From assembly GCA_001775055.1 (NCBI GenBank), contig MFBU01000014.1:120535-184534 (forward strand): a stretch of 64,000 bases of DNA. The letters run 5' to 3'. Positions 2,753 to 50,217 of this stretch are shown here, piece by piece. The stretch is from Candidatus Curtissbacteria bacterium RIFCSPLOWO2_02_41_11 (lineage in GTDB: Bacteria > Patescibacteriota > Microgenomatia > Curtissbacterales > GWA2-41-24). The notes under the pieces are model-generated. The model saw nothing but the letters and a program-made list of their open reading frames with translations. It was not told the DNA's origin and searched no databases. The position numbers and the translations under genes are program-made. The stretch's first letter is position 1. Every line of letters starts with the position of its first letter.

Positions 2753-3683
2753 AACTACATTAGCAATCGAGCTTGCCCAAAAATACAATGGAGAATTAAT
2801 TTCTGCTGATTCGAGACAAGTCTATCGTGGTCTTGATATCGGAACAGGGAAGGTAAGTTTCACCTCAAAAATCGGAAAACATCAAGGCTTTTGGATAGTA
2901 GATGATGTAAAAATCCACGGTTTTGACTTAGTCAATCCCGGCCAAAGATTTTCTGTAGCAGATTTTCTTACATTCGCTAATAGTTCAATAGTTCAAACTA
3001 TTAAACTAAATAAGTTGCCAATTATTGTTGGTGGAACGGGGTTTTATATTAAAGCCCTAATTAATGGGATTGGCTCAATTGGTATTCCTTTAAATCCAAA
3101 ACTTCGTCAACAACTTGAAAAATTATCAACTACCGATCTTTATCAAAAACTTCTCGAAATTAATCCAAAACGCGCTCAATCGATGAATGACTCGGACAGA
3201 AAAAATCCGAGGCGTTTGATCCGCGCCATCGAAATTGCTACATATAACAAGAAACTAAAAACTAGAAACTTGAAACGAAAGATTATTCACTACCAACTAC
3301 CCACTACCAACTACCAGCTCGTTGGCCTTACTGCTCCCAACTTCTATCTCTACAATCGTTCCGACAAATGGCTCGAAGAACGTCTTTCCCATGGAATGGT
3401 TGATGAAGTCAAAAATCTTCTTGATCAAAAAGTTAAACCCCAGTGGCTTGATGATCTTGGCCTTGAATACCGTTGGCTAACCCGATATTTACTTGGGCAA
3501 ATCACAAAGGAAGAAGCCATCAACCGTCTTAGAGGTGACATCCATTCTTTCATCCGTCGCCAAAAAACCTGGTTTCGGCAATTTCCAAATATTTATCTAT
3601 TTGATATCTCAAAACCAAGTTGGCGCCAAAAGTTAGAAAAAATAGTTAGCCTCTGCTATACTCAAACAAATGTCGCAAGATAA
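2715..3683 (+). CDS. miaA: tRNA dimethylallyltransferase (tRNA isopentenyltransferase)
   Basis: N-terminal P-loop LVIYGPTATGKTTLAIELA followed by ISADSRQVYRGLDIGTGK, the canonical MiaA signature. Length is about 320 aa. The true start is probably the second Met (about 2718-2721). Confidence 0.85.
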   Translation: MMLVIYGPTATGKTTLAIELAQKYNGELISADSRQVYRGLDIGTGKVSFTSKIGKHQGFWIVDDVKIHGFDLVNPGQRFSVADFLTFANSSIVQTIKLNKLPIIVGGTGFYIKALINGIGSIGIPLNPKLRQQLEKLSTTDLYQKLLEINPKRAQSMNDSDRKNPRRLIRAIEIATYNKKLKTRNLKRKIIHYQLPTTNYQLVGLTAPNFYLYNRSDKWLEERLSHGMVDEVKNLLDQKVKPQWLDDLGLEYRWLTRYLLGQITKEEAINRLRGDIHSFIRRQKTWFRQFPNIYLFDISKPSWRQKLEKIVSLCYTQTNVAR

Positions 3684-6037: not shown

Positions 6038-7390
6038 ATGAAGAAAGCAACTATTTTGGTAATTGACGGTGGCGGCCGGGGAGCGGTTCTTGTCGATAAA
6101 TATTGCCAAAGTCGCCATGTCACACAAGTCTTGGCAGTCCCTGGCAATGACCTGATGAAAAAGCTCTCTCAAAAGCCTGTCAATATTTTCCCCAAAATTA
6201 AGACAACTGACATTTTATCAATAATCAAAATTTGCCAAAGCGAAAAAGTCGATCTAGTTGATGTTGTTCAGGACGATGCTGTTGCGAAAGGAGTAGTCGA
6301 TGCTTTGCAAAATGAGGGAATTCGCGTCTTTGGTCCCACTAAGGCAGCTTCCCAAATCGAATGGGATAAAGCCTGGGCCCGCAATTTTATGAAAAAATTT
6401 AAAATCCCAGCTCCGGAATTTAAAATCTGCAAATCATCTCAAGAAGGCATCGATTTCATCAAATCGCAAAAACGAGGCGAGTGGTTTATCAAAACCTCAG
6501 GACTGGCTGCTGGCAAAGGTGCTTTATATGCTAAAGATAACCATCAAGCAATTCAAAAAATCAATCAAATGAAAGATTTTGGCAAGGCAGGCCAAACTTA
6601 TCTTATCGAAAAGTGTCTTGTCGGTGAAGAATTTTCCTCCTTTGCCATCGTTGACGGATCAAACTTTGTTCTTCTTGGCCATGCCCAAGACCACAAGCCG
6701 GTTTTTGACGGAGATTTAGGACCAAATACCGGAGGCATGGGTTGCTCGTCACCGCCAATGGCCATCACCAAAAAAATCGAAAAACAAATCAAAAACATTT
6801 TTAAAAAAACAACTGAAGGCTTGGTTAAAATTGGTCGTTCTTACAGGGGTATCCTTTACCTTGGTGGAATGATCGATAAAAACGGTATGGTTTATGTTAT
6901 TGAGTTTAATGCCCGCTGGGGCGATCCCGAGGCACAGGTGATTATTCCTTCAATCAAAAATGATTTTTACGAACTGGCAAATCAAGTTCTTGACGGGGGG
7001 ATTAAAAAAATTAAAATAAAGAAAGATAATTCTTATCGAATTGCAGTTACCGCTGCTTCTCGCGGTTATCCGTCTGATTATTCAAAAGTGATCGGTAAAC
7101 AAATTTTCGGTCTGGATCATCTTCTTAATCAATTCACTTCCTCTCGTCATCCTGAGAGAAGCGAAGGATCTTATAAAATCTTTGGCGCTGGTGTAAAAAT
7201 CCATAATAGTAAATATCTGGTAAACGGCGGTAGATTATTTTATGTGACGACAGCTGGCAAAAATGTTGCACAAGCCAGAAAAATAGCCTATAATGCTCTT
7301 TCTTTAGTCAATGTCGAAAGCGACAATTTACATTACCGCACCGACATCGGCTGGCGAGATTTAGAAAGATTCTATGGAAAGACATTTTAA
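6038..7390 (+). CDS. purD: phosphoribosylamine--glycine ligase (GAR synthetase)
   Basis: MKKATILVIDGGGRGAVL...AVPGN is the PurD N-terminus. It has the ATP-grasp core and a PurD C-domain. Contains an in-frame GC-rich insertion encoding SRHPERSEGS (see findings). Confidence 0.9.
   Translation: MKKATILVIDGGGRGAVLVDKYCQSRHVTQVLAVPGNDLMKKLSQKPVNIFPKIKTTDILSIIKICQSEKVDLVDVVQDDAVAKGVVDALQNEGIRVFGPTKAASQIEWDKAWARNFMKKFKIPAPEFKICKSSQEGIDFIKSQKRGEWFIKTSGLAAGKGALYAKDNHQAIQKINQMKDFGKAGQTYLIEKCLVGEEFSSFAIVDGSNFVLLGHAQDHKPVFDGDLGPNTGGMGCSSPPMAITKKIEKQIKNIFKKTTEGLVKIGRSYRGILYLGGMIDKNGMVYVIEFNARWGDPEAQVIIPSIKNDFYELANQVLDGGIKKIKIKKDNSYRIAVTAASRGYPSDYSKVIGKQIFGLDHLLNQFTSSRHPERSEGSYKIFGAGVKIHNSKYLVNGGRLFYVTTAGKNVAQARKIAYNALSLVNVESDNLHYRTDIGWRDLERFYGKTF
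7148..7170. repeat. GC-rich short element with core CCTGAG-N5-CGAAGGA, in-frame in purD
   Basis: tcatCCTGAGagaagCGAAGGAtc. Encodes RHPERSEGS, absent from canonical PurD alignments. Confidence 0.6.
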
Positions 7391-17134: not shown

Positions 17135-18414
17135 TGAAAAATACCTCACTTAAAAGTTGGCAAGGCATTACCTGTGTGATTGGTCTTGACTGGGGTGATT
17201 CAGGTAAGGGGCGGTTGATTGATGATCTGTCCTCCCGCGCCGATATCGTTGCCCGCTATAGCGGTGGTTCAAATACCGGGCACACCGTCAAAAATAAATA
17301 CGGAAAATTTGCCATGCACATAATGCCCTCGGGTATTTTTAATCAAAAAGCTCAATGTTTAATCGGTCGGGGCGTTGCTTGCGATTTGGAATCTTTAATC
17401 GAAGATGAAATGGCCCAGCTCCAAAAAGCCGCTATCTCTTGGAAGAATTTAATTATTGATGAGCAGGCATCATTGACGATGCCTTGGCATAAACTTCGTG
17501 ATGGCTTACGCGAAGAATTCCGTTTAAAAAAAATTGGTACTACCAAGCGGGGTGTTGGCCCAACTTACGCCGACAGGATTGAAAGAGTCGGTTTAAGAAT
17601 TAAAGACCTCATGTCCTCTGATTTTAAAGACAAGCTTTTTGAAGAAGTCAAAATTCAGAATAAATTTTTTAATCTTAAACTTAACCCCACTCAAATCTAT
17701 AGAAGGTATCTAAAATTTTCCAAATTATTAAAACCTTACGTTGGCCAAACTATTCCGATTGTCAAAAATGCCCAAAATATGGGTAAAAATATTTTATTTG
17801 AAGGTACTCAAGGATCTCTTCTAGACGTCGATTTCGGAACTTACCCCTTTGTCACCTCCACTAATATTGGTGTTATCGGAATTTGGCGCAGTTTCAACCT
17901 TCATCCATCCGAGATTAACCACGTAATTGGGATATCCAAAGCCTACTCAACTAGAGTTGGCGCTGGTCCACAGCCGACAAAACTGGATGGAGAAAAAAGA
18001 CAAATCATTATCGAAAAAGGTCAGGAAATCGGTACAACTTCAGGCAGAACCCGCGACCCTGGATGGCTCGACTTAGTTATTATTAGAGCAGCAGCCGAGT
18101 TTAACAAACTCACTGCTTTGGCAATTACCAAACTTGATGTTTTGACTGGATTTAAAAAGATCAAAGTTTGTACTTCTTATAAAATCAATGACAAAACTGT
18201 TGAATATCTTTCCGGAGATGCCCAATTTTTGGCAAAGTGTCAACCAGTTTATAAAGAAGTTGATGGCTGGAGGGAAGATTTGTCAAAAATTCGCCAGTTT
18301 AAAAAGCTCCCTAAAAATGCCCAAAATTATATTAAGATAATTGAAAAATTGGTTGATGTTCCGGTAAAGTTTATATCAGTTGGGCCAAATAGGGGAGAAG
18401 TGATATACCTATGA
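17134..18414 (+). CDS. purA: adenylosuccinate synthetase
   Basis: GLDWGDSGKGRLID (GxQWGDEGKGK P-loop), GGSNTGHTV and GTTKRGVGPTYADR are PurA motifs. Confidence 0.9.
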   Translation: MKNTSLKSWQGITCVIGLDWGDSGKGRLIDDLSSRADIVARYSGGSNTGHTVKNKYGKFAMHIMPSGIFNQKAQCLIGRGVACDLESLIEDEMAQLQKAAISWKNLIIDEQASLTMPWHKLRDGLREEFRLKKIGTTKRGVGPTYADRIERVGLRIKDLMSSDFKDKLFEEVKIQNKFFNLKLNPTQIYRRYLKFSKLLKPYVGQTIPIVKNAQNMGKNILFEGTQGSLLDVDFGTYPFVTSTNIGVIGIWRSFNLHPSEINHVIGISKAYSTRVGAGPQPTKLDGEKRQIIIEKGQEIGTTSGRTRDPGWLDLVIIRAAAEFNKLTALAITKLDVLTGFKKIKVCTSYKINDKTVEYLSGDAQFLAKCQPVYKEVDGWREDLSKIRQFKKLPKNAQNYIKIIEKLVDVPVKFISVGPNRGEVIYL

Positions 18415-19589
18415 AAATCAAAAATCAACCCGTCCTTGACCGAGTCGAGACGAGGTCGGGAAAATCAAAAATCAAAAGTTATCAGGACCTTACAATCGCA
18501 ACAGTTGGGTCTCACTCTGCCCTTGATATTTGTCGCGGTGCCAAAGATGAAGGTTTTAAAACATTGGTTGTTGTTGAGAAAGGACGTGATCAAACCTATG
18601 TCAACTATTTTAAATCAGCCCGTCCTTCGACAAGCTCAGGACCTTCGGGTTGCGTCGATGAAGTTGTATATGTTGATAAATTTAAAGACATACTTTTGCC
18701 AAAAATCCAAAAAATCTTAAAAAATAAAAATTGTATTTTCATCCCTCACCGTTCATTTGAAGTCTATGTTAGCGATTATGATGCCATTGAAGATAAATTT
18801 GATGTCCCCATTTTTGGCAACCGCTATCTTTTGCGCTTTGAGGAAAGAAACGAAAAACCTAATCAGTACGATCTTTTAGAAAAGGCCGAAATAAGATATC
18901 CAAAAATATTTAAAGACCCTAAAGATATTAACACCATTGTTATAGTTAAAGTAAATGAAAAAGAAAGAAGGTTCGAAAGAGCTTTTTTCTTAGCAACTTC
19001 TCATGCGCGGTATAAATATGAGTCAGAAAGGCTAATCAAGGGTGGGGTTATTACTAAGATAGACCTTAATGCCGCTATTATCGAAGAATTTATTTTAGGT
19101 GTTCAAGTAAATTTTAACTTCTTCTATTCACCAATTAATCGTCGATTAGAGTTAGTTGGAACAGACACCAGAAGACAGACAGATTTAGAAGGAATTTTAA
19201 GGTTGCCTATTAACCAACAAGAGGAACTCTTTGAACTTAAAAGAATATATCCTCAATATGAAGAAGCAGGTCATATAGCAGTTACCACCTTGGAATCCAT
19301 GCTTGAGCCGGCTTTTGAAATTGGAGAAAAATTTGTAAAAGCCACAAAAGAAATGAAACCACCTGGTGTCATCGGTCCCTTTGGACTCCAATCGGTAATT
19401 ACCCCAGGCCCCCCAAAGAAAGAAATTGTCGTTTTTGACGTTTCACCCAGAATGCCCGGTTCGCCGGGGATTTCTAGCACCCCTTACAGCGGCTATCTTT
19501 ATGGGAAGAATATCAGCATGGGCAGGCGGGTTGCCATGGAAATTAAAAAAGCAGTCGCCATAAAGAGACTTTCAAAAATAGTCACATGA
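18411..19589 (+). CDS. purP: second PurP-family ATP-grasp paralog (FAICAR synthetase-like)
   Basis: IATVGSHSALDICRGAKDEGFKTLVVV, IPHRSFEVY, FGNRYLLRFEER, FYSPINRRLE, GPFGLQSV. Carries an extra GC-rich in-frame insert (SARPSTSSGPSGCVDEV) absent from paralog 1. Confidence 0.8.
   Translation: MKIKNQPVLDRVETRSGKSKIKSYQDLTIATVGSHSALDICRGAKDEGFKTLVVVEKGRDQTYVNYFKSARPSTSSGPSGCVDEVVYVDKFKDILLPKIQKILKNKNCIFIPHRSFEVYVSDYDAIEDKFDVPIFGNRYLLRFEERNEKPNQYDLLEKAEIRYPKIFKDPKDINTIVIVKVNEKERRFERAFFLATSHARYKYESERLIKGGVITKIDLNAAIIEEFILGVQVNFNFFYSPINRRLELVGTDTRRQTDLEGILRLPINQQEELFELKRIYPQYEEAGHIAVTTLESMLEPAFEIGEKFVKATKEMKPPGVIGPFGLQSVITPGPPKKEIVVFDVSPRMPGSPGISSTPYSGYLYGKNISMGRRVAMEIKKAVAIKRLSKIVT
18620..18660. 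repeat. same-family GC-rich element (reverse orientation: CGAAGG-t-CCTGAG-cttgt-CGAAGGA), in-frame in purP paralog 2
   Basis: Plus strand gTCCTTCGacaagCTCAGGaCCTTCGggttgcgtcg. Encodes SARPSTSSGPSGCVDEV, absent from paralog 1. Confidence 0.6.
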
Positions 19590-26502: not shown

Positions 26503-27276
26503 GTGAAACGTTTATCTCTGATTTTTGCGGTATTAGCAGTTCTTTTAATTGGCGCCGGCTTAGGGTTTTTCATATCTCAAACCTCAAAGTCCAATCCAGA
26601 CCAGTCAGGACAAAATCAATCGGTGAGTCGGATTGAAGGCGAAAAGACAGGTCAACAATTACCGTCACCAACTATTTTAGCGGGACAAAGAATCAAAGTA
26701 ATAAGAATTATTGACGGTGATACTATTGAAATTGAAGGCGGCCAAAAAGTCCGCTACATTGGTATTGATGCTCCTGAAACTGTCCATCCCGATATGAAAG
26801 TACAATGTTTTGGAAAAGAGGCAGCAGTCAAAAATAAAGAATTGATCGAAGGCAAAATTATCGAGCTTGAAAAAGATGTCTCAGAAACTGATAAGTATGG
26901 AAGGCTATTGAGATATATCTATAGTGATAATATTTTTGTCAATGACTTTCTGGTAAGACAAGGTTTTGCTCATGCCTCAACTTATCCGCCGGATGTTAAA
27001 TACCAAGATCAGTTTCGTCAGGCCGAACAAGAAGCCCAAGAATTTAATCGCGGACTTTGGGGAGTTTGTCAGTCAACTTCCTCTCAACCCTCTTCATCCT
27101 CTCAACCATCTGATTGTTTAATCAAAGGCAACATTTCATCATCCGGCGAAAAAATTTACCACATGCCCGGCCAGAGGTATTATGACAAAACGGTCATTGA
27201 TGAGAATAAAGGCGAGCGCTGGTTTTGTTCTGAGGATGAAGCAGTCTTGGCCGGCTGGCGCAAATCAAAAATATAA
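26503..27276 (+). CDS. secreted thermonuclease (staphylococcal nuclease/SNase-like) with C-terminal small Cys-containing domain
   Basis: N-terminal TM/signal. VIRIIDGDTIEI ... VRYIGIDAPE is the SNase signature. C-terminal KGNISSSGEKIYHMPGQRYYDKT...WFCSEDEA domain. Confidence 0.7.
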   Translation: MKRLSLIFAVLAVLLIGAGLGFFISQTSKSNPDQSGQNQSVSRIEGEKTGQQLPSPTILAGQRIKVIRIIDGDTIEIEGGQKVRYIGIDAPETVHPDMKVQCFGKEAAVKNKELIEGKIIELEKDVSETDKYGRLLRYIYSDNIFVNDFLVRQGFAHASTYPPDVKYQDQFRQAEQEAQEFNRGLWGVCQSTSSQPSSSSQPSDCLIKGNISSSGEKIYHMPGQRYYDKTVIDENKGERWFCSEDEAVLAGWRKSKI

Positions 27277-27301
27277 AAGTTATAATAAGTAAGTACAAAA
27301 A

Positions 27302-28846
27302 ATGCTTGCCAAAGTCACTTCTGCCGCAGTTATCGGACTTGATGCAGTTCCCATTACTGTTGAGGTTGACATCGCAGCAATGGGTTTGCCCTCCTTTACT
27401 ATTGTTGGCCTTCCGGATAAAGCGGTTGAGGAATCAAAAGAAAGAGTCCGTGCTGCTCTTAAAAACTCCGGCGCCGATCTGCCGCCAAAGCGTATTACCG
27501 TCAATCTTGCTCCCGCAGATTTGCCCAAAGAAGGTCCAGCATATGACTTGCCGATCGCCTTGGGTATTTTAATGGCTTCAGAACAATTGACAGCTCGGGA
27601 TCTGTCCGATTCTATTTTCTTAGGAGAGCTTTCACTTGACGGATCAGTCCGCAGAATCTGGGGAGTTTTACCATGCGTACTTCTTGCCAGAGAGAAAAAA
27701 TTCATTAATTGTTTTATACCCAAAGAAAATATTGCTGAAGCGCAAGTTGTTGATAAAATTAATATTTTTCCGGTTGCAAACCTAAAACAACTCTTTAATC
27801 ATTATTCAACTTCTCACTTGCCGGAAATCAATCGAAAGCAAATCGTACCAGCAAAATTTCAAAAACAAAAATTTACAAATATACACGATAGCGAATATGA
27901 TTTTGAAAATATCCGGGGTCAGGAGTCTGCCAAAAGGGCCCTAGAGATTGCAGCTGCCGGCGGCCATAATGTTTTGATGAAAGGACCACCCGGTGCCGGT
28001 AAAACCTTAATGGCCAGATCCTTTGCCACCATTTTGCCAAAACTGACTTTCGAGGAAAGTCTGGAAGTAACCAAAATTTATTCGGTCGCAAACCTGCTGA
28101 ATCAGTCGAATCCAATAATATTATCAAGACCAATCCGTAGTCCCCATCATACGACCAGTAATATCGGTTTAATTGGTGGAGGAAATATTCCAAGGCCTGG
28201 CGAGATTTCCCTTGCCCATCGCGGGGTTCTTTTCTTGGATGAATTCCCAGAATTCCCCAGACACGTTCTTGAGGCTCTTCGCCAACCTATGGAAGATGGG
28301 CATGTAACTATTTCTCGAGCTGCGGGCTCTGTTAAATTTCCTTGTCGATTTACTTTAATTGCCGCTTCCAATCCTTGTCCCTGCGGATTTTTTGGCGATG
28401 AAACCAGAAATTGTACCTGTATGCCGCATATGATCACCCGCTATCAAAAAAGAATCTCCGGACCGATTTTAGACAGGATTGACATGCACATATCAGTCCC
28501 GGCTGTTAAAGTCGAAAAATTAACCGGCAAATTTCAGGCCGAGTCATCATCACAGATTCAAAAACGAGTTCAGAGAGCTCGCGACTTTCAGCTTAAAAGA
28601 TTCAAAGGTTTAAAAATTACCTCAAATTCCGAGATGAACAATAAACAATTAAAGCAATTCTGCAATCTCGATGATCAATCAATTCTCCTTTTAAAACAAG
28701 CAATCTCCAAACTCAATCTTTCTGCCAGAGCCTTTCACAGAGTAATTAAAATCGCCCGCACAATTGCAGACCTTGAAGGTTCCATCAAAATTCAATCCAA
28801 TCACGTCGCAGAGGCACTACAATACCGTCCTCAGGTCGATAGTTAG
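27302..28846 (+). CDS. comM: YifB/ComM-family Mg-chelatase-like AAA+ ATPase
   Basis: MLAKVTSAAVIGLDAVPITVEVDIA N-terminus. Walker A MKGPPGAGKT. Walker B LFLDEFPEF. C-terminal helix ARAFHRVIKIARTIADLEG. About 510 aa. Confidence 0.85.
   Translation: MLAKVTSAAVIGLDAVPITVEVDIAAMGLPSFTIVGLPDKAVEESKERVRAALKNSGADLPPKRITVNLAPADLPKEGPAYDLPIALGILMASEQLTARDLSDSIFLGELSLDGSVRRIWGVLPCVLLAREKKFINCFIPKENIAEAQVVDKINIFPVANLKQLFNHYSTSHLPEINRKQIVPAKFQKQKFTNIHDSEYDFENIRGQESAKRALEIAAAGGHNVLMKGPPGAGKTLMARSFATILPKLTFEESLEVTKIYSVANLLNQSNPIILSRPIRSPHHTTSNIGLIGGGNIPRPGEISLAHRGVLFLDEFPEFPRHVLEALRQPMEDGHVTISRAAGSVKFPCRFTLIAASNPCPCGFFGDETRNCTCMPHMITRYQKRISGPILDRIDMHISVPAVKVEKLTGKFQAESSSQIQKRVQRARDFQLKRFKGLKITSNSEMNNKQLKQFCNLDDQSILLLKQAISKLNLSARAFHRVIKIARTIADLEGSIKIQSNHVAEALQYRPQVDS
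28481..28846 (+). repeat. left copy of 366-bp direct repeat (comM 3' end). Core 28487-28771 is 100% identical to 32405-32689. The last 75 nt are diverged.
   Basis: Direct comparison of the two stretches in the sequence. Confidence 0.9.
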
Positions 28847-29063
28847 AAACATTAATTTGTAATATCGCACAACTTATTGCCTATTTTTAAGATAAATTTG
28901 ACCTTGATAGCACTCCTTGATATGCTTAGCTTCGTAATTAGCAGGCTAATTAATATGTCTGCTTAACTTTGAAAATATTTTTGATTATGTCAAATTTGAA
29001 TTTACTTCTTATTTAAGCAGGTTTATTTCTTCAGTATTACTGCATATTTACTAAAATTAGAAT

Positions 29064-31271
29064 ATGAAAATTGCATTTATCGCATCATTTGTACCACGCA
29101 AATGTGGTGTTGCCACATACACGAGAGATCTTTCTTTGGAAATACACAAAAAACGTATTCCTATCTCAATTTTTGCAATGGAAAATCCCATGATTCCTAC
29201 TGTATATGCTCCTCCGGTAATGGAAACTATTCAACAAGAAAAAATCGCTGATTACCAAAAAGTTGCAAAACTTCTAAATTCCAGCTCTGTTGATATTGTG
29301 CATTTGCAGCACGAGTTTGGTCTCTTTGGAGGAGCAGATGGTGAATATATCCTGGATCTTGCATCACTACTTAATAAACCACTCGTAGTTACATTCCATA
29401 CAGTACTACTAACACCAACGGAGCATCAGAAATACATTATTCAAGAACTTACACGGTTGTCAAGAAACGTGATTATTATGGATGAAGTGGCAAACAACCG
29501 ACTAGAACAGGTATACGGACTTAACCCCAGCGATAGCGTTTTTATACTGCATGGCGCTCCAATTACTACGATGAAGAAGGATGTTGCAAAAAAAATTATT
29601 AATTTTCCTTACACATTTATTTTACTTGCAAATAATCTGCTCAGTAGAAATAAAGGTATTGAATATGCAATCGAAGCAGTCGCACAAGCTGTTTTAAAAA
29701 TACCAAATTTAGTATTTCTTGTATTAGGAGAAACACATCCTCTTGTCAAAAAAACTGAAGGCGAATCATACAGAGAAGAGCTTATGGAGCAAGTTATTAA
29801 ATTAAAACTCGAAAAGCATATTATCTTTATAAACAAATATTTACCACTTGAGCAGTTGCAAATATATTTGGCTGCTGCTGATGTATATATTACTCCTTAC
29901 CTTGATCCTCAACAAATTACATCAGGTACGCTCTCATATGCAATTGGCGCTGGAAAAGCGTGCATCTCAACTGAGTTCATATATGCCAAAGATATTCTCG
30001 CAAAAGGCCAAGGTATACTGGTGCAGTTTCGTGATAGTAATGCAATTGCAAAGGCTCTTGTCCAATTGTATAAAGATCCAAAAAAGCTTCGAAAATTAGA
30101 AACGAATGCTACTAACCTACGAAAAGATATGCGTTGGTCGCGCGTTGCCCAAAAACATATCTTACTCTACGAAAAAATTCTGCAACTGAATGATTCACAA
30201 ACAATAGCTAAAAAAATTCTACGTGCTCCGCTTGATATTTCATACCTCTCTCATTTAACTGATGCTGTCGGTGTGATTCAGCATACACATCACATCATTC
30301 CAGATAGAAAATTTGGATATAGTACCGACGATAATGCACGGGCACTCATCGTAGTGTCGCAGTTATATAAACAACATAAAACAGACGACATTTTGAAACT
30401 TATCAAACTTTATGTGACTTTTTTAAAATTTGCTCAAAGTGCAAATGGCAAATTTCATACATTTCTCAATTTCAACCGAAGCTGGGACGACACAACCGAT
30501 GTTACCGATCCATATGGAAAAGCCATGTGGGCATTAGGCTTTAATTTATATCTTAACGACAATCCACCTTTTGCACAGTCTGTCCACTCTCTTTTTGTCA
30601 TGAATCTAGAACAGATGGATAATATCCGCGATCTAAGAACTGCAGCTTACACGATGCTTGGGCTGTACTATTATATTCTGACGTATGAATCAAAGACAGA
30701 TGCTGCAGTACAAGCAAGCGTTTATCTGAAAAAATTAGCTGATTTTCTCATTGGCGCATATGAAAAAAGCCACACAACCAGTTGGGATTGGTTTGAAGAT
30801 ACAGTTACATATGATAATTTCCGTCTTCCGCAGGCACTTTTTGCAGCTTACATGATTACCCGAAACGTTAAATATAAAAAGGTTGCAAACTTAACTCTGC
30901 AATTTATCACAAATTGCAATTATGATAAACAGAAGAGTTATTTTGACTTTATCGGACAAGATGGTTGGTATGTAAAAGGAGAAAAAAAGGCAGAGTATGA
31001 CCAGCAACCACTTGAAGCTGCGGCAGCAGTTGATGCATATGTATTTGCTGCTAAGGCATTACATAAAAAAAATTATCTAAGTCGTGCACTTCTTGCATTC
31101 GAGTGGTTTTTTGGCAATAACCGCAATCATAGATATATCTATGATGAAAATACTAAGGGTGTTTTTGACGGGCTTACCAAAAGAGGCGTCAATCAAAATG
31201 AAGGTGCAGAATCAACCGTTTGTTTTTTGATGTCTTGTTTTTCTTTACAACACTCCCTAAAAAAGATTTAG
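29064..31271 (+). CDS. bifunctional-looking glycosyltransferase: N-terminal GT4 (group 1) domain fused to about 350-aa C-terminal domain of unknown (possibly glycosidase-like) function
   Basis: MKIAFIASFVPRKCGVATYTRDL and the GT4 C-terminal EX7E-like region (GTLSYAIGAGKACISTEF). Size is 735 aa. Located inside the comM-flanked insertion. Confidence 0.55.
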   Translation: MKIAFIASFVPRKCGVATYTRDLSLEIHKKRIPISIFAMENPMIPTVYAPPVMETIQQEKIADYQKVAKLLNSSSVDIVHLQHEFGLFGGADGEYILDLASLLNKPLVVTFHTVLLTPTEHQKYIIQELTRLSRNVIIMDEVANNRLEQVYGLNPSDSVFILHGAPITTMKKDVAKKIINFPYTFILLANNLLSRNKGIEYAIEAVAQAVLKIPNLVFLVLGETHPLVKKTEGESYREELMEQVIKLKLEKHIIFINKYLPLEQLQIYLAAADVYITPYLDPQQITSGTLSYAIGAGKACISTEFIYAKDILAKGQGILVQFRDSNAIAKALVQLYKDPKKLRKLETNATNLRKDMRWSRVAQKHILLYEKILQLNDSQTIAKKILRAPLDISYLSHLTDAVGVIQHTHHIIPDRKFGYSTDDNARALIVVSQLYKQHKTDDILKLIKLYVTFLKFAQSANGKFHTFLNFNRSWDDTTDVTDPYGKAMWALGFNLYLNDNPPFAQSVHSLFVMNLEQMDNIRDLRTAAYTMLGLYYYILTYESKTDAAVQASVYLKKLADFLIGAYEKSHTTSWDWFEDTVTYDNFRLPQALFAAYMITRNVKYKKVANLTLQFITNCNYDKQKSYFDFIGQDGWYVKGEKKAEYDQQPLEAAAAVDAYVFAAKALHKKNYLSRALLAFEWFFGNNRNHRYIYDENTKGVFDGLTKRGVNQNEGAESTVCFLMSCFSLQHSLKKI

Positions 31272-32177
31272 CACTAATTTTTTTTCGACAGTAGCAACTC
31301 CTATCACACGATCAGCAGCACCATAGTAGACGTAATAGATACCACCCTTTTCGATTGCTCCGCAGGTAAATACGACATTGGGAACAAAACCAAATGTTTC
31401 ATAATCAGTTTCAGGTTCAAATATCGGTTCTGGTGAACGATATAAGATTTTTGTTGGGTCATTCCTATCAAGAAACATGATGCCCAATCTGTAGATATTT
31501 TCTTCATCAACACCATGATAAAAAAGAAGCCACCCTTTTTCGGTTTCTATAGGAGGCGAGCCGATACCAGTTCGCTTACTATCCCAAAACCCTGCTCGAT
31601 TATTAAAGACGGGATATACTTGCGGCCACAAGTTGAGTTGATCTGATTTTGCAAAATAGCTTATGCTGTTTTCTTTCCTATAAAGAAGCCAATACTCACC
31701 GTTTATTTTTTTGGGAAATAAACTCGCATTTTTTCCCACTATATAAGGCAGGATAATACCGTGTTCATGGAAAGATCTAAAGTCTTTTGTTGAAATCATA
31801 GCGATATGGGCTACCATGTTAATTAATTCTGGCCAATTGGGATTTATTTTTCCTTGTGGGTTTTCGGAGACTATTGTAAACGTTATAAAAAACATATCAT
31901 TTATTTTTACGATTCGAGGATCTTCGACACCAAGTTTTCTAAATTTTTCTTCTCTTGCGAAGTAGACAGGCTTTTCTCTTCGTTCGAAATGAATTCCATC
32001 ATGACTTGTGGATAGACCAAAGCGTGAAGTAGACTCGTTTTTTCCTCGCGCTCTGTAAAGAAGATATACAATATCCTTTGATACAACTGCACCAGGGTTG
32101 AAAACAAGCCTATTCTCCCATGATAAATTCGACGGCGTAAGAATGGGATTTTCTTTTGCGCGGGTAAGCTTGACCAT
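31257..32177 (-). CDS. GH130-family glycoside phosphorylase/hydrolase (beta-mannoside phosphorylase-like, DUF377)
   Basis: N-terminus ENPILTPSNLSWENRLVFNPGAVV and a 5-bladed propeller-like pattern typical of GH130. About 300 aa. Confidence 0.65.
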   Translation of the reverse strand: MVKLTRAKENPILTPSNLSWENRLVFNPGAVVSKDIVYLLYRARGKNESTSRFGLSTSHDGIHFERREKPVYFAREEKFRKLGVEDPRIVKINDMFFITFTIVSENPQGKINPNWPELINMVAHIAMISTKDFRSFHEHGIILPYIVGKNASLFPKKINGEYWLLYRKENSISYFAKSDQLNLWPQVYPVFNNRAGFWDSKRTGIGSPPIETEKGWLLFYHGVDEENIYRLGIMFLDRNDPTKILYRSPEPIFEPETDYETFGFVPNVVFTCGAIEKGGIYYVYYGAADRVIGVATVEKKLVLNLF

Positions 32178-32398
32178 AAAAATAGTTTATACCTAAAATA
32201 CTTCAACTTGCATCTATTAAAAAGAATTTTAGGTACATAATCGGTTAACGAGAGTTGCAAACTCGAGTTAAACGAGTTTATATCACTTGTTATAACGGCA
32301 CAATACTACCGGGGTGTGGGACTTGCCTAGGCAAAGTAGAAATTTTCTCACCGAAAAACTAATGCGAAAAGAGAAGAAAAGCTCGCGATAAAGGGGTC

Positions 32399-32764
32399 GA
32401 CATACACATATCAGTCCCGGCTGTTAAAGTCGAAAAATTAACCGGCAAATTTCAGGCCGAGTCATCATCACAGATTCAAAAACGAGTTCAGAGAGCTCGC
32501 GACTTTCAGCTTAAAAGATTCAAAGGTTTAAAAATTACCTCAAATTCCGAGATGAACAATAAACAATTAAAGCAATTCTGCAATCTCGATGATCAATCAA
32601 TTCTCCTTTTAAAACAAGCAATCTCCAAACTCAATCTTTCTGCCAGAGCCTTTCACAGAGTAATTAAAATCGCCCGCACAATTGCAGACTTAGAAGGATC
32701 AGAAAAGATTAAATCAAACCACGTCGCAGAAGCCCTGCAGTATAGACCACAAGTGGATAGTTAG
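32399..32764 (+). pseudogene. comM: duplicated 3' fragment of comM (right copy of direct repeat). Encodes only the last about 120 codons, with no start context.
   Basis: Identical to comM codons about 395-490, then a diverged tail (LEGSEKIKSNHVAEALQYRPQVDS versus LEGSIKIQSNHVAEALQYRPQVDS). The tracked ORF 32552..32764 lies within it. Confidence 0.7.
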
Positions 32765-32781
32765 TCTGTTAGAATAAACGA

Positions 32782-33402
32782 GTGAAGAGACTTGTTATCA
32801 TTTCAGTAATTTTTATCCTTGTTTTTATAATTGCTTCTATAATTACAGCGATTATTATTAGCTTTACGGTTGTAAAGCCGACCACAGAGGCAATCAATCA
32901 AAAACTTGCCGAGCATTTTGCAAAGATTGTGCGTATTCCTAAAGGTATTCTGCCTCCAAATATCGGGTTTGACTTAACAAGTTATTCATGGGAAATGGAA
33001 ACTATCGAGAAAGAAGTAACCGGAATTAAGTTCAGTTATAATCCTGCTTTTGTCAGAAACCAAAGCGTTATATTAGCTACTTTAGAAATGCCCGAAGGAG
33101 GGGACGTCAGCATTTTTAATAAGGTCTTGGGTGCGGTTGTTTCCGATAAACAATCGCTAAATTCTGCGCTTGATATTGAGAAAGCAAATTTATCGGCAAA
33201 TCAGGATGCCGGATATAGTAAAATTAACCTTTCAATTAAGCCGGAAACCAAACAAACAATCAAAATAACTTGGGAATACGATAAAAGTAAGCTGGGCAAT
33301 GATCTAAGTCAAGACTATGCTAAACTTGCTAAATACCCCCCGTCGCTGTTAGGGATATTTTACGGTTTGCCCCACTTAATCATAGGACTGCTTGGAGGCT
33401 AA
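32782..33402 (+). CDS. membrane-anchored hypothetical protein
   Basis: N-terminal TM helix followed by about 170 aa of soluble sequence. No motif recognised. Confidence 0.35.
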   Translation: MKRLVIISVIFILVFIIASIITAIIISFTVVKPTTEAINQKLAEHFAKIVRIPKGILPPNIGFDLTSYSWEMETIEKEVTGIKFSYNPAFVRNQSVILATLEMPEGGDVSIFNKVLGAVVSDKQSLNSALDIEKANLSANQDAGYSKINLSIKPETKQTIKITWEYDKSKLGNDLSQDYAKLAKYPPSLLGIFYGLPHLIIGLLGG

Positions 33403-50146: not shown

Positions 50147-50217
50147 TGCCGGATCGTCTAATGGTAGGACCGCAGACTCTGGATCTGCGTATCTAGGTTC
50201 GAATCCTAGCCTGGCAG
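50147..50217 (+). tRNA. tRNA-Gln (anticodon CUG)
   Basis: Hand-folded. U1 (bacterial tRNA-Gln hallmark), acceptor tgccgga. D-arm gtct/aatggta/ggac. Anticodon arm gcaga-ctCTGga-tctgc (U33, CTG at 34-36). T-arm ctagg-ttcgaat-cctag. 3' acceptor cctggca plus discriminator g. One A7:C66 mismatch. No encoded CCA. Confidence 0.65.

Follow-up and report, generated by a model that had tools for sequence, protein, structure and literature searches.

The junction of comM and orf206 in Candidatus Curtissbacteria, a probable replacement-type flexible island with a truncated comM copy and mostly small glycan gene sets

We analysed a stretch of 64,000 nucleotides (nt) of Candidatus Curtissbacteria bacterium RIFCSPLOWO2_02_41_11 (contig MFBU01000014.1), below called the window, in which two glycan-metabolism genes lie between the competence gene comM and a second, 5'-truncated copy of the end of comM. 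The genomes closest to the window are metagenome-assembled genomes (MAGs) of Candidatus Curtissbacteria, which belong to the Patescibacteria, or candidate phyla radiation (CPR). The genes around the locus are purine-biosynthesis genes, genes of a HAD hydrolase and an SNase-like nuclease, comM, the two cargo genes, orf206, DUF4446 and DUF3048 genes, and secDF. The features of the locus, in window positions, are as follows.

27302-28846, plus strand: comM (yifB), intact, 514 amino acids (aa), left anchor of the variable slot; Pfam ChlI PF13541, Mg_chelatase PF01078, Mg_chelatase_C PF13335
28481-28846, plus strand: repeat copy A, comM codons 393-514 and stop, 344/366 identical to copy B
28487-28771, plus strand: 285-nt block, 100% identical to 32405-32689 in the alignment of copies A and B, putative recent gene-conversion or recombination tract
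28772-28846, plus strand: tail A, a mosaic by alignment to loci L096 and L015/L110, the first ~53 nt native-looking and the last 41 nt cassette-linked
28847-28893, plus strand: 47-nt spacer, by alignment inherited with tail A and the cassette in the L015/L110 lineage and partly in L105, absent from L092, L091 and L095
28894-29063, plus strand: leader or promoter region of the GT4 gene, left edge of the mobile module; homology to L091, L095 and L092 always starts at ~28894
29064-31271, plus strand: fusion protein with a retaining GT4 glycosyltransferase, 735 aa (GT4 residues ~1-375, predicted all-alpha toroid ~390-735); Pfam Glyco_transf_4, Glycos_transf_1
31257-32177, minus strand: GH130 enzyme, 306 aa, beta-1,2-mannobiose/beta-1,2-oligomannan phosphorylase-like; Pfam GH130, 7.5e-61
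32178-32335, no strand assigned: upstream region of the GH130 gene, right part of the mobile module; homology to L091 until 32335, to L095 until ~32308
32353-32398, plus strand: flank Y, which precedes copy B whatever the cargo and contains ...GAAAAACTAATGCG..AAGAGAAGAAAAGCTCGCGATAAAGGGGTC; 13-46 nt of it are conserved in relatives
32399-32764, plus strand: repeat copy B, 5'-truncated comM fragment (codons 393-514), offset by 3918 nt from copy A, 344/366 identical
32782-33402, plus strand: orf206, lineage-specific predicted membrane protein, right anchor of the slot, adjoining comM in relatives with an empty site

The comM product scores 632 bits with TIGR00368 (cutoff 362) and combines the ChlI domain, the AAA+ core and the C-terminal lid domain characteristic of YifB. 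Thus, the gene is intact, as an earlier note on this DNA, made from the sequence alone, had claimed. Its orthologues at about 40 Curtissbacteria loci are 75-93% identical.

The direct repeat described in that note was recovered in both places, with sharp edges, since identity drops to about 30% directly outside both ends. The perfect central 285 bp were recovered as well, although short-read assemblers could mask one or two single-nucleotide polymorphisms (SNPs) between the copies, so that perfection may be slightly overstated. Just before this block a mismatch at 28486 changes ATG in copy A to ATA in copy B (M394I). The last 75 nt of the copies (28772-28846) had been described as about 75% identical and encoding nearly the same peptide; the near-identity of the peptide stands, the only amino-acid changes being I494E and Q497K, while the nucleotide identity is 72% (54/75). 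The open reading frame (ORF) remaining in copy B has 70 aa (32552-32764).

The arrangement is found in contigs with an identical comM or orf206 from ENA re-assemblies, JGI and two NCBI MAGs, representing several samples: all have the order comM, GT4, GH130, copy B, orf206. The contigs with an identical comM match the window at 99.0-100% over 7.5 kb and come from at least 10 independent assemblies, with contigs up to 174 kb. No excision polymorphism was observed, as every contig with an identical comM or orf206 carries the island.

To describe the slot in relatives, the proteins and DNA of the window were mapped on about 40 Curtissbacteria loci (L-numbers) from genome and metagenome collections. 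The interval between comM and orf206 is a hypervariable slot, which includes empty sites, as the earlier note had predicted. In the virgin sites of L107/L142, L116 and L119, orf206 begins 19-32 nt past the comM stop with no relic. In L019, L099/L100, L113 and L120 the empty site has a short relic, a degenerate second comM end of ~70 nt after the stop. Overall, orf206 follows comM directly or nearly so in L019, L099, L107, L113, L116 and L119. Besides empty sites, at least eight alternative contents occupy this one position, as is usual for replacement islands, and most of the cargos are glycan genes:

window and L092: GT4-toroid and GH130 genes
L017: P-type ATPase
L013: Crp, HSP20, PCMT, baeRF, SDR and cupin
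L061: GNAT, two-component system and ABC transporter
L011: GT20 and GT4
L096: ROK kinase, GT4, GH63/MGH1-like hydrolase, then DUF3352
L111: ROK, GT2 and two GT4 genes, then DUF3352
L015/L110: GT4-toroid gene with BrnT/BrnA and Fic

In L096 (13546-16332, minus strand) and L111 (14896-17487, minus strand) the gene of the large DUF3352 protein (863-928 aa) is situated between copy B and orf206. Hence, the slot has at least two insertion points, before and after copy B.

The absence of an integrase from the insert, also stated in the earlier note, is borne out by the annotated genes within +/-10 kb of the locus, which include no integrase, transposase or phage gene. Likewise, no recombinase is listed in the precomputed gene tables of L091, L092, L095 or the window +/-10 kb, and none of the 25 cargo ORFs screened with Pfam (L011, L013, L015, L017, L061, L096, L111) has an integrase or transposase domain; this screen left aside shorter ORFs, the inserts of L016 and L018, and enzymes acting in trans. 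Nor is there a tRNA, tmRNA or known RNA near the locus that could serve as an attachment site: Rfam gives no match across 28700-32900 even at E<=1, and the single tRNA of the window, at 50147, is ~17 kb away.

Copy B, beginning at codon 393 with the same left junction, and flank Y adjoin different cargo in L096, L111 and L011, so that the Y|B junction is common to loci with different contents. This speaks against a single recent insertion of 3.5 kb as the source of both repeats, which the earlier note had proposed. In L096, the sister lineage of the window (comM protein 93% identical), Y is ~84% identical and copy B is internally deleted. In L111 the last 22 nt of Y are recognisable. In L011 the last 13 nt are, copy B carries a frameshift, and the junction overlaps with the stop codon of a GT4 gene. 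In L092, with the same GT4/GH130 cargo as the window, Y is kept (87.5%) and copy B is cut to ~30 nt. In the segment that is perfect in the window, copy B is just 73% (L011) and 64% (L111) identical to the resident comM. As Y and copy B stand beside other cargos, with copy B decayed or only 64-73% identical, the duplication is older than this cargo or independent of it, and hence the perfect 285 nt of the window need a separate recent homogenisation. A dN/dS comparison (non-synonymous to synonymous substitutions) of the B copies, aimed at purifying selection, gave saturated dS and thus no information on such selection. Copy B of L111 (14483-14848, also L112) is an intact ORF of 121 aa from Met394 with a Shine-Dalgarno-like motif GAGGGG 5 nt upstream; judging by its sequence, some lineages may express the Mg_chelatase_C lid domain as a protein of its own. 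We also considered that flank Y might derive from the C-terminus of an earlier GT4 gene and rejected this, the blastx matches being non-significant (E 0.9-6).

The GT4/GH130 module, in turn, is mobile independently of the slot. At the same site in L092 it is 91% identical to the window (29009-32395), whereas the flanks are ~74% (comM) and ~71% (orf206) identical. In L091 the module is 84% identical and lies outside comM, next to BrnT/CopG genes; L091 and L013 belong to one MAG, and the comM slot of this MAG (L013) carries quite different cargo. In L095 it is 76% identical and lies at another non-comM site, beside a PIN-domain gene. In L015/L110 only the GT4 gene of the module is present.

The two tails of the repeat have different histories. 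At its distal end, tail A shares 95% identity over 41 nt (28806-28846) with a second, detached comM tail which in L015/L110 precedes the GT4 cassette, after one or two hairpin units, and the 47 nt after tail A are common to the window and L015/L110. The first 53 nt (28772-28824), on the other hand, are 83% identical to the comM tail of the sister lineage L096, compared with 69% for tail B. From the distal match to the cassette and the proximal match to the sister it follows that tail A is a mosaic, native to ~28805-28822 and cassette-linked beyond. Hence, of the proposal that one tail is native and the other imported, an imported part remains, namely the end of tail A, which travels with the cargo; copy B is hardly the displaced native tail, since the first 53 nt of tail A are nearer to the sister gene than tail B is. 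Tail B is nearest to the comM tails of other lineages (~85% to L104, L019, L017 and L102), with no lineage above ~86% as its donor. It encodes a perfect consensus comM C-terminus and thus recently belonged to a functional comM; copy B went through recombination of its own. Small deletions at microhomologies are visible as well: L105, for instance, corresponds to L110 without the stretch between two CGC triplets.

Short second comM ends of ~70 nt after the stop are also found in front of cargo (L014, L015, L017, L061, L096, L101, L108, L125), and L061 has three comM tails in tandem.

Taken together, we consider the comM-orf206 junction to be a replacement-type flexible genomic island, in which mostly small glycan gene sets are swapped without an island-encoded integrase (probability roughly 0.55). 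The history that we infer, including the order of its steps, the types of recombination and the gene conversion, is as follows. An old Campbell-type insertion-duplication would have put foreign DNA behind comM, leaving comM complete and, beyond the insert, copy B, truncated at its 5' end (codons 393-514) and preceded by flank Y; this founding event is suggested by the topology, a full gene, an insert and a 5'-truncated copy. The cargo between comM and copy B would then have been exchanged repeatedly, through homologous or illegitimate recombination that probably followed natural transformation, while copy B decayed in most lineages; the turnover of cargo without recombinase genes points to these two types of recombination. 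In the lineage of the window, the GT4-toroid/GH130 module would have arrived with the last ~40 nt of comM and the 47-nt spacer. Finally, a recent intragenomic gene conversion, from A to B or from B to A, would have homogenised 285 nt of the two copies; the sharp fall of identity from 100% to 72% at 28771/28772 suggests the end of such a conversion or recombination tract. Patescibacteria are reported to have many genomic islands and competence genes (PMC12455944), and ComM is a branch-migration helicase in natural transformation (PMC6158740).

Several observations weigh against this explanation. Homologous exchange usually leaves breakpoints within the flanking genes, but none is clearly visible. 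In comparisons of the window with L092, L105 and L110, identity rises from ~70% to >90% just past the comM stop and not within comM. At the right edge, which coincides with the Y|B junction, traces may have been lost through conversion in the window and through deletion in L092. In a rough neighbour-joining tree of comM residues 1-392, without support values, lineages with copy B are scattered among those without it, so that repeated independent import of an arm consisting of Y and copy B fits as well as one old origin with losses. An old pseudogene would hardly be expected to encode a perfect consensus C-terminus, as tail B does, so that a further event has to be assumed, for example, recombination of copy B with incoming comM DNA. 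Lastly, the short relics have their left edge no more than ~10 nt away from 28772, a position that would suit the core of a site-specific system too.

If the island of the window were instead the product of a recent Campbell insertion-duplication, a circle with Y, a comM 3' arm and the GT4/GH130 genes would have entered comM via a single RecA crossover, generating copies A and B. The topology is exactly the expected one, with the full gene upstream and the truncated copy downstream; the Y|B junction is constant across cargos, copy-B lineages are scattered in the comM tree, copy B in L011 and L111 differs from the resident comM to the degree expected of a foreign gene, and the 285-nt identity would be natural with a donor from the same population. 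We nevertheless regard this as rather unlikely. One donor arm would not be expected to be >99% identical over 285 nt and 72% in the adjacent 75 nt; tail B would have to be native, yet the first 53 nt of tail A are nearer to the sister (83% vs 69%), a weak argument as the stretch is short; all contigs with an identical comM or orf206 are integrated, with no circular form or plasmid backbone; and natural transformation brings linear single-stranded DNA, not circles. A recurrent version, in which Y and comM codons 393-514 form a portable homology arm, so that integrase-free circles or fragments enter the 3' end of comM by RecA and leave by recombination of A with B, seems doubtful to us. Similarly improbable in our judgement is a decayed site-specific element of the kind known from icd, where a tyrosine or serine recombinase, lost or encoded elsewhere, would have used an attachment (att) core in the last ~75 nt of comM, each element bringing a replacement comM end and repeated integrations and deletions leaving nested tail relics. 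Such an element would account for the intact comM, for tail A travelling with the cassette, and for the short second tails of ~70 nt (L014, L015, L017, L019, L061, L096, L099, L101, L108, L113, L120, L125), whose left edge is within ~10 nt of the identity break at 28771/28772, including the three tandem tails of L061. However, no screened cargo ORF encodes a recombinase, the junctions vary among loci (codon 393, ~481, ~497, ~505), one and the same end of the cassette (...AAGGGG[A/T]C) is joined to comM at different positions in the window and L092, the hairpin next to the short relics is no site-specific sequence, its motif being dispersed and found within coding sequences too, and an identity of 285 nt is far longer than typical att cores.

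An assembly artefact had been named in the earlier note as an outcome that would overturn the insertion. In this case, the chromosome would run from comM to orf206, and the cassette would be on a separate molecule (e.g. a free 3.9-kb circle) or in another strain. The exact repeat of 285 nt does exceed the length of short reads, so that an alternative solution of the assembly graph exists, and one older MAG has gaps in both copies. Still, we hold an artefact to be very improbable, as at least 10 independent contigs from several samples and sources, some over 70-170 kb, are all integrated and no assembler chose the alternative; the unique junctions (comM into tail A; Y into copy B and then tail B) are each present, and L011, L111 and L096 have diverged, unambiguous repeats in a like arrangement. 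Two other candidates were rejected. For the template and variable repeats of a diversity-generating retroelement, the differences between the copies are not adenine-specific but involve all base types; most are synonymous and concentrated in the tail, and none of the neighbouring genes encodes a reverse transcriptase. For a transposon with terminal inverted repeats, inverted repeats are at chance level only.

Replacement flexible islands with glycan genes, exchanged by homologous recombination, have been described in Alteromonas, Pelagibacterales and others (PMC4033161, PMC4898812, PMC11898729). They are the closest match, and the replacement-type reading makes our locus a local example of this known genome plasticity, with a flanking-gene duplication added. 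The slot resembles such "glycotype" islands in its fixed position between core genes, its differing sets of related glycan genes, its lack of an integrase, and its cargo, which is far more similar or far more different than the flanks. It differs from them in that the cargo is small (1-6 genes) and resembles cytoplasmic synthesis or degradation of glycosides rather than clusters for O-antigen or capsule, a partly duplicated flanking gene marks the slot, the flanks show no clear breakpoints, and the genomes compared represent species-level lineages of uncultured CPR bacteria instead of strains.

Elements such as e14 and phage 21 integrate in the 3' end of icd and supply a replacement end, and integrase-less derivatives of such elements are known as cis-mobilizable elements (CIMEs). 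The direct repeats of the target 3' end, the intact gene, the one element-borne tail with synonymous divergence and the tandem relics are common to these islands and our locus. In contrast to them, no integrase was found here, the junctions vary, and a long perfect block with a diverged tail stands in place of a short identical core. Insertion-duplication of the Campbell type, in which circular DNA enters via one homologous segment, is used in pneumococcal mutagenesis and likewise yields an intact gene, an insert and a 5'-truncated copy; however, it is a laboratory and plasmid phenomenon, whereas a natural, recurrent version with a portable arm is only proposed here. The islands of AbaR type and Tn7-like islands share the target family with our locus, as they are situated in comM of Acinetobacter baumannii (PMC11441513, PMC11014353, PMC7508600), and this is the basis of the label of a "hotspot" that the earlier note gave to comM. 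These are transposons which inactivate comM at a defined internal site and have their own transposition genes, whereas here comM is intact, the variable DNA lies past its stop, no transposition genes were found and the duplication comprises 366 nt.

The slot provides a well-sampled example of gene turnover in ultra-small, integrase-poor CPR genomes, as one comM slot swaps glycoside modules between species-level lineages. It also demonstrates that a flanking direct repeat is no proof of a recent insertion, the repeat here being a relic that was presumably in part refreshed by gene conversion. If the portable arm did operate, this would be a minimal mobile cassette system of ultra-small CPR bacteria based on recombination only, with an integrase-free mobility linked to the natural-transformation machinery and aimed at the gene of ComM itself. 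The cargos tend to pair a synthase with a degrading enzyme (GT4-toroid/GH130; GT4/GH63 with the ROK kinase; GT20/GT4), which suggests interchangeable pathways for storage or compatible-solute glycosides.

The two cargo genes of the window are convergent, with an overlap of 15 nt, and Pfam confirmed their earlier assignment as a GT4 fusion and an enzyme similar to beta-mannoside phosphorylases. The minus-strand product is clearly a member of GH130. Its closest solved structures, both matched over the full length, are 9fj8 (3e-64) and 7fip (1e-63) in PDB, beta-1,2-oligomannan and beta-1,2-mannobiose phosphorylases; with NF052550, the NCBIfam model for beta-1,2-mannobiose phosphorylase, it scores 290 bits, under the equivalog cutoff of 450 bits, and its substrate as a beta-1,2-mannoside phosphorylase is putative.

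The C-terminal part of the GT4 protein had been described as a 350-aa unknown domain, fused to the glycosyltransferase. However, the 735-aa architecture is not new: full-length homologues of 735-780 aa are encoded in Microgenomates, Omnitrophica, Caldiserica and other groups of many phyla. In an AlphaFold model built with 41 sequences (pLDDT 90.5), the C-terminal half is predicted to fold as an all-alpha toroid, matched by Foldseek to 7tem (YPO2471), and the N-terminal half to MshA, PimA, BshA and sucrose-phosphate synthase (retaining GT-B); the C-termini of some homologues match PF06662, PF07470 or PF07944. From these similarities, the cargo probably serves the synthesis and recycling of a beta-1,2-mannoside-type glycoside by means of a GT4 synthase with an accessory domain and a phosphorylase. 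The PADLOC defence models gave no match for the GT4 fusion, GH130, orf206 or orf95, and we rejected a defence island on this ground. A foreign origin of the cargo was not accepted on composition either, the contrast in GC content being weak (slightly lower in the cargo, 0.35-0.38, than in comM, ~0.40-0.44).

The leader of the GT4 gene (170 nt) accompanies the module in every context, with 92-100% identity in L105, L110 and L092. It holds the perfect palindromes AATTAGC..GCTAATT and TCAAATTTGA, with no Rfam match, and a promoter-like TTGACC-17-TATGCT at 28898-28926. It may be an operator or another regulatory element.

The 5' side of comM varies as well. In L015/L109/L110, L099, L123, L118, L108, L105, L100 and L021 (Levyibacteria), three tandem GH130 paralogues, 33-38% identical to the GH130 enzyme of the window, replace the SNase gene upstream of comM, and L015/L110 have a duplicated N-terminal fragment of comM (codons 1-37) and Fic genes on this side. 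Thus, glycan genes are found upstream as well as downstream of comM, and plasticity is not confined to its 3' side.

In relatives with short relics, the comM stop is followed by a conserved hairpin (6-bp stem, ~12-nt loop) and then by a second copy of the last ~40 nt (AEALQYRPxxx and stop). The sites are:

L019, 5304-5388: hairpin and short relic
L099, 9546-9630: hairpin and short relic
L113, 9522-9606: hairpin and short relic
L014, 3966-4050: hairpin and short relic
L017, 1482-1566: hairpin and short relic
L096, 9543-9627: hairpin and short relic
L108, L120, L125, L101 and L061: also hairpin and short relic

One stem pair covaries, being CG in 6 sequences and AU in 5 with none broken, and the short relics are more alike between lineages than expected of neutral intergenic DNA. 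A dedicated att site was rejected despite the covariation of the 6-bp stem, since the motif CCTGAG-N-CGAAGG is dispersed and occurs also in-frame within coding sequences. The dispersed palindromic motif CCTGAG-N(3-8)-YGAAGG, with a stem of 5-6 bp, was seen in the window, L107, L020, L038, L061, L096, L091 and others. Two copies are present in the window, compared with 0.07 expected (7151-7167, plus strand; 18624-18640, minus strand), and both are in-frame, in a 450-aa ORF (6038-7390) and in the DUF1246/DUF1297 purine gene (18411-19589; ...ARPSTSSGPSG...). They are reminiscent of the gene-inserting palindromic elements of Rickettsia.

Two of the related contigs differ from the window in detail. 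An older MAG of the same strain (L178; GCA_000996905.1, LCBC01000024.1), otherwise 100% identical, has two in-frame gaps, at 3013/3014 and 6808/6809: window positions 28574-28672 (99 nt) are missing from its copy A and 32469-32588 (120 nt) from its copy B, so that its annotated comM has 481 aa; these gaps are probably a mis-assembly inside the 285-nt repeat. In L009, a second strain (ERZ27254792 k141_99343; compared over window 26695-32483), comM is identical, the SNase gene has an 18-nt deletion, and the GT4 and GH130 genes differ by ~1% in clustered SNPs, which hints at recent population-level recombination within the cargo.

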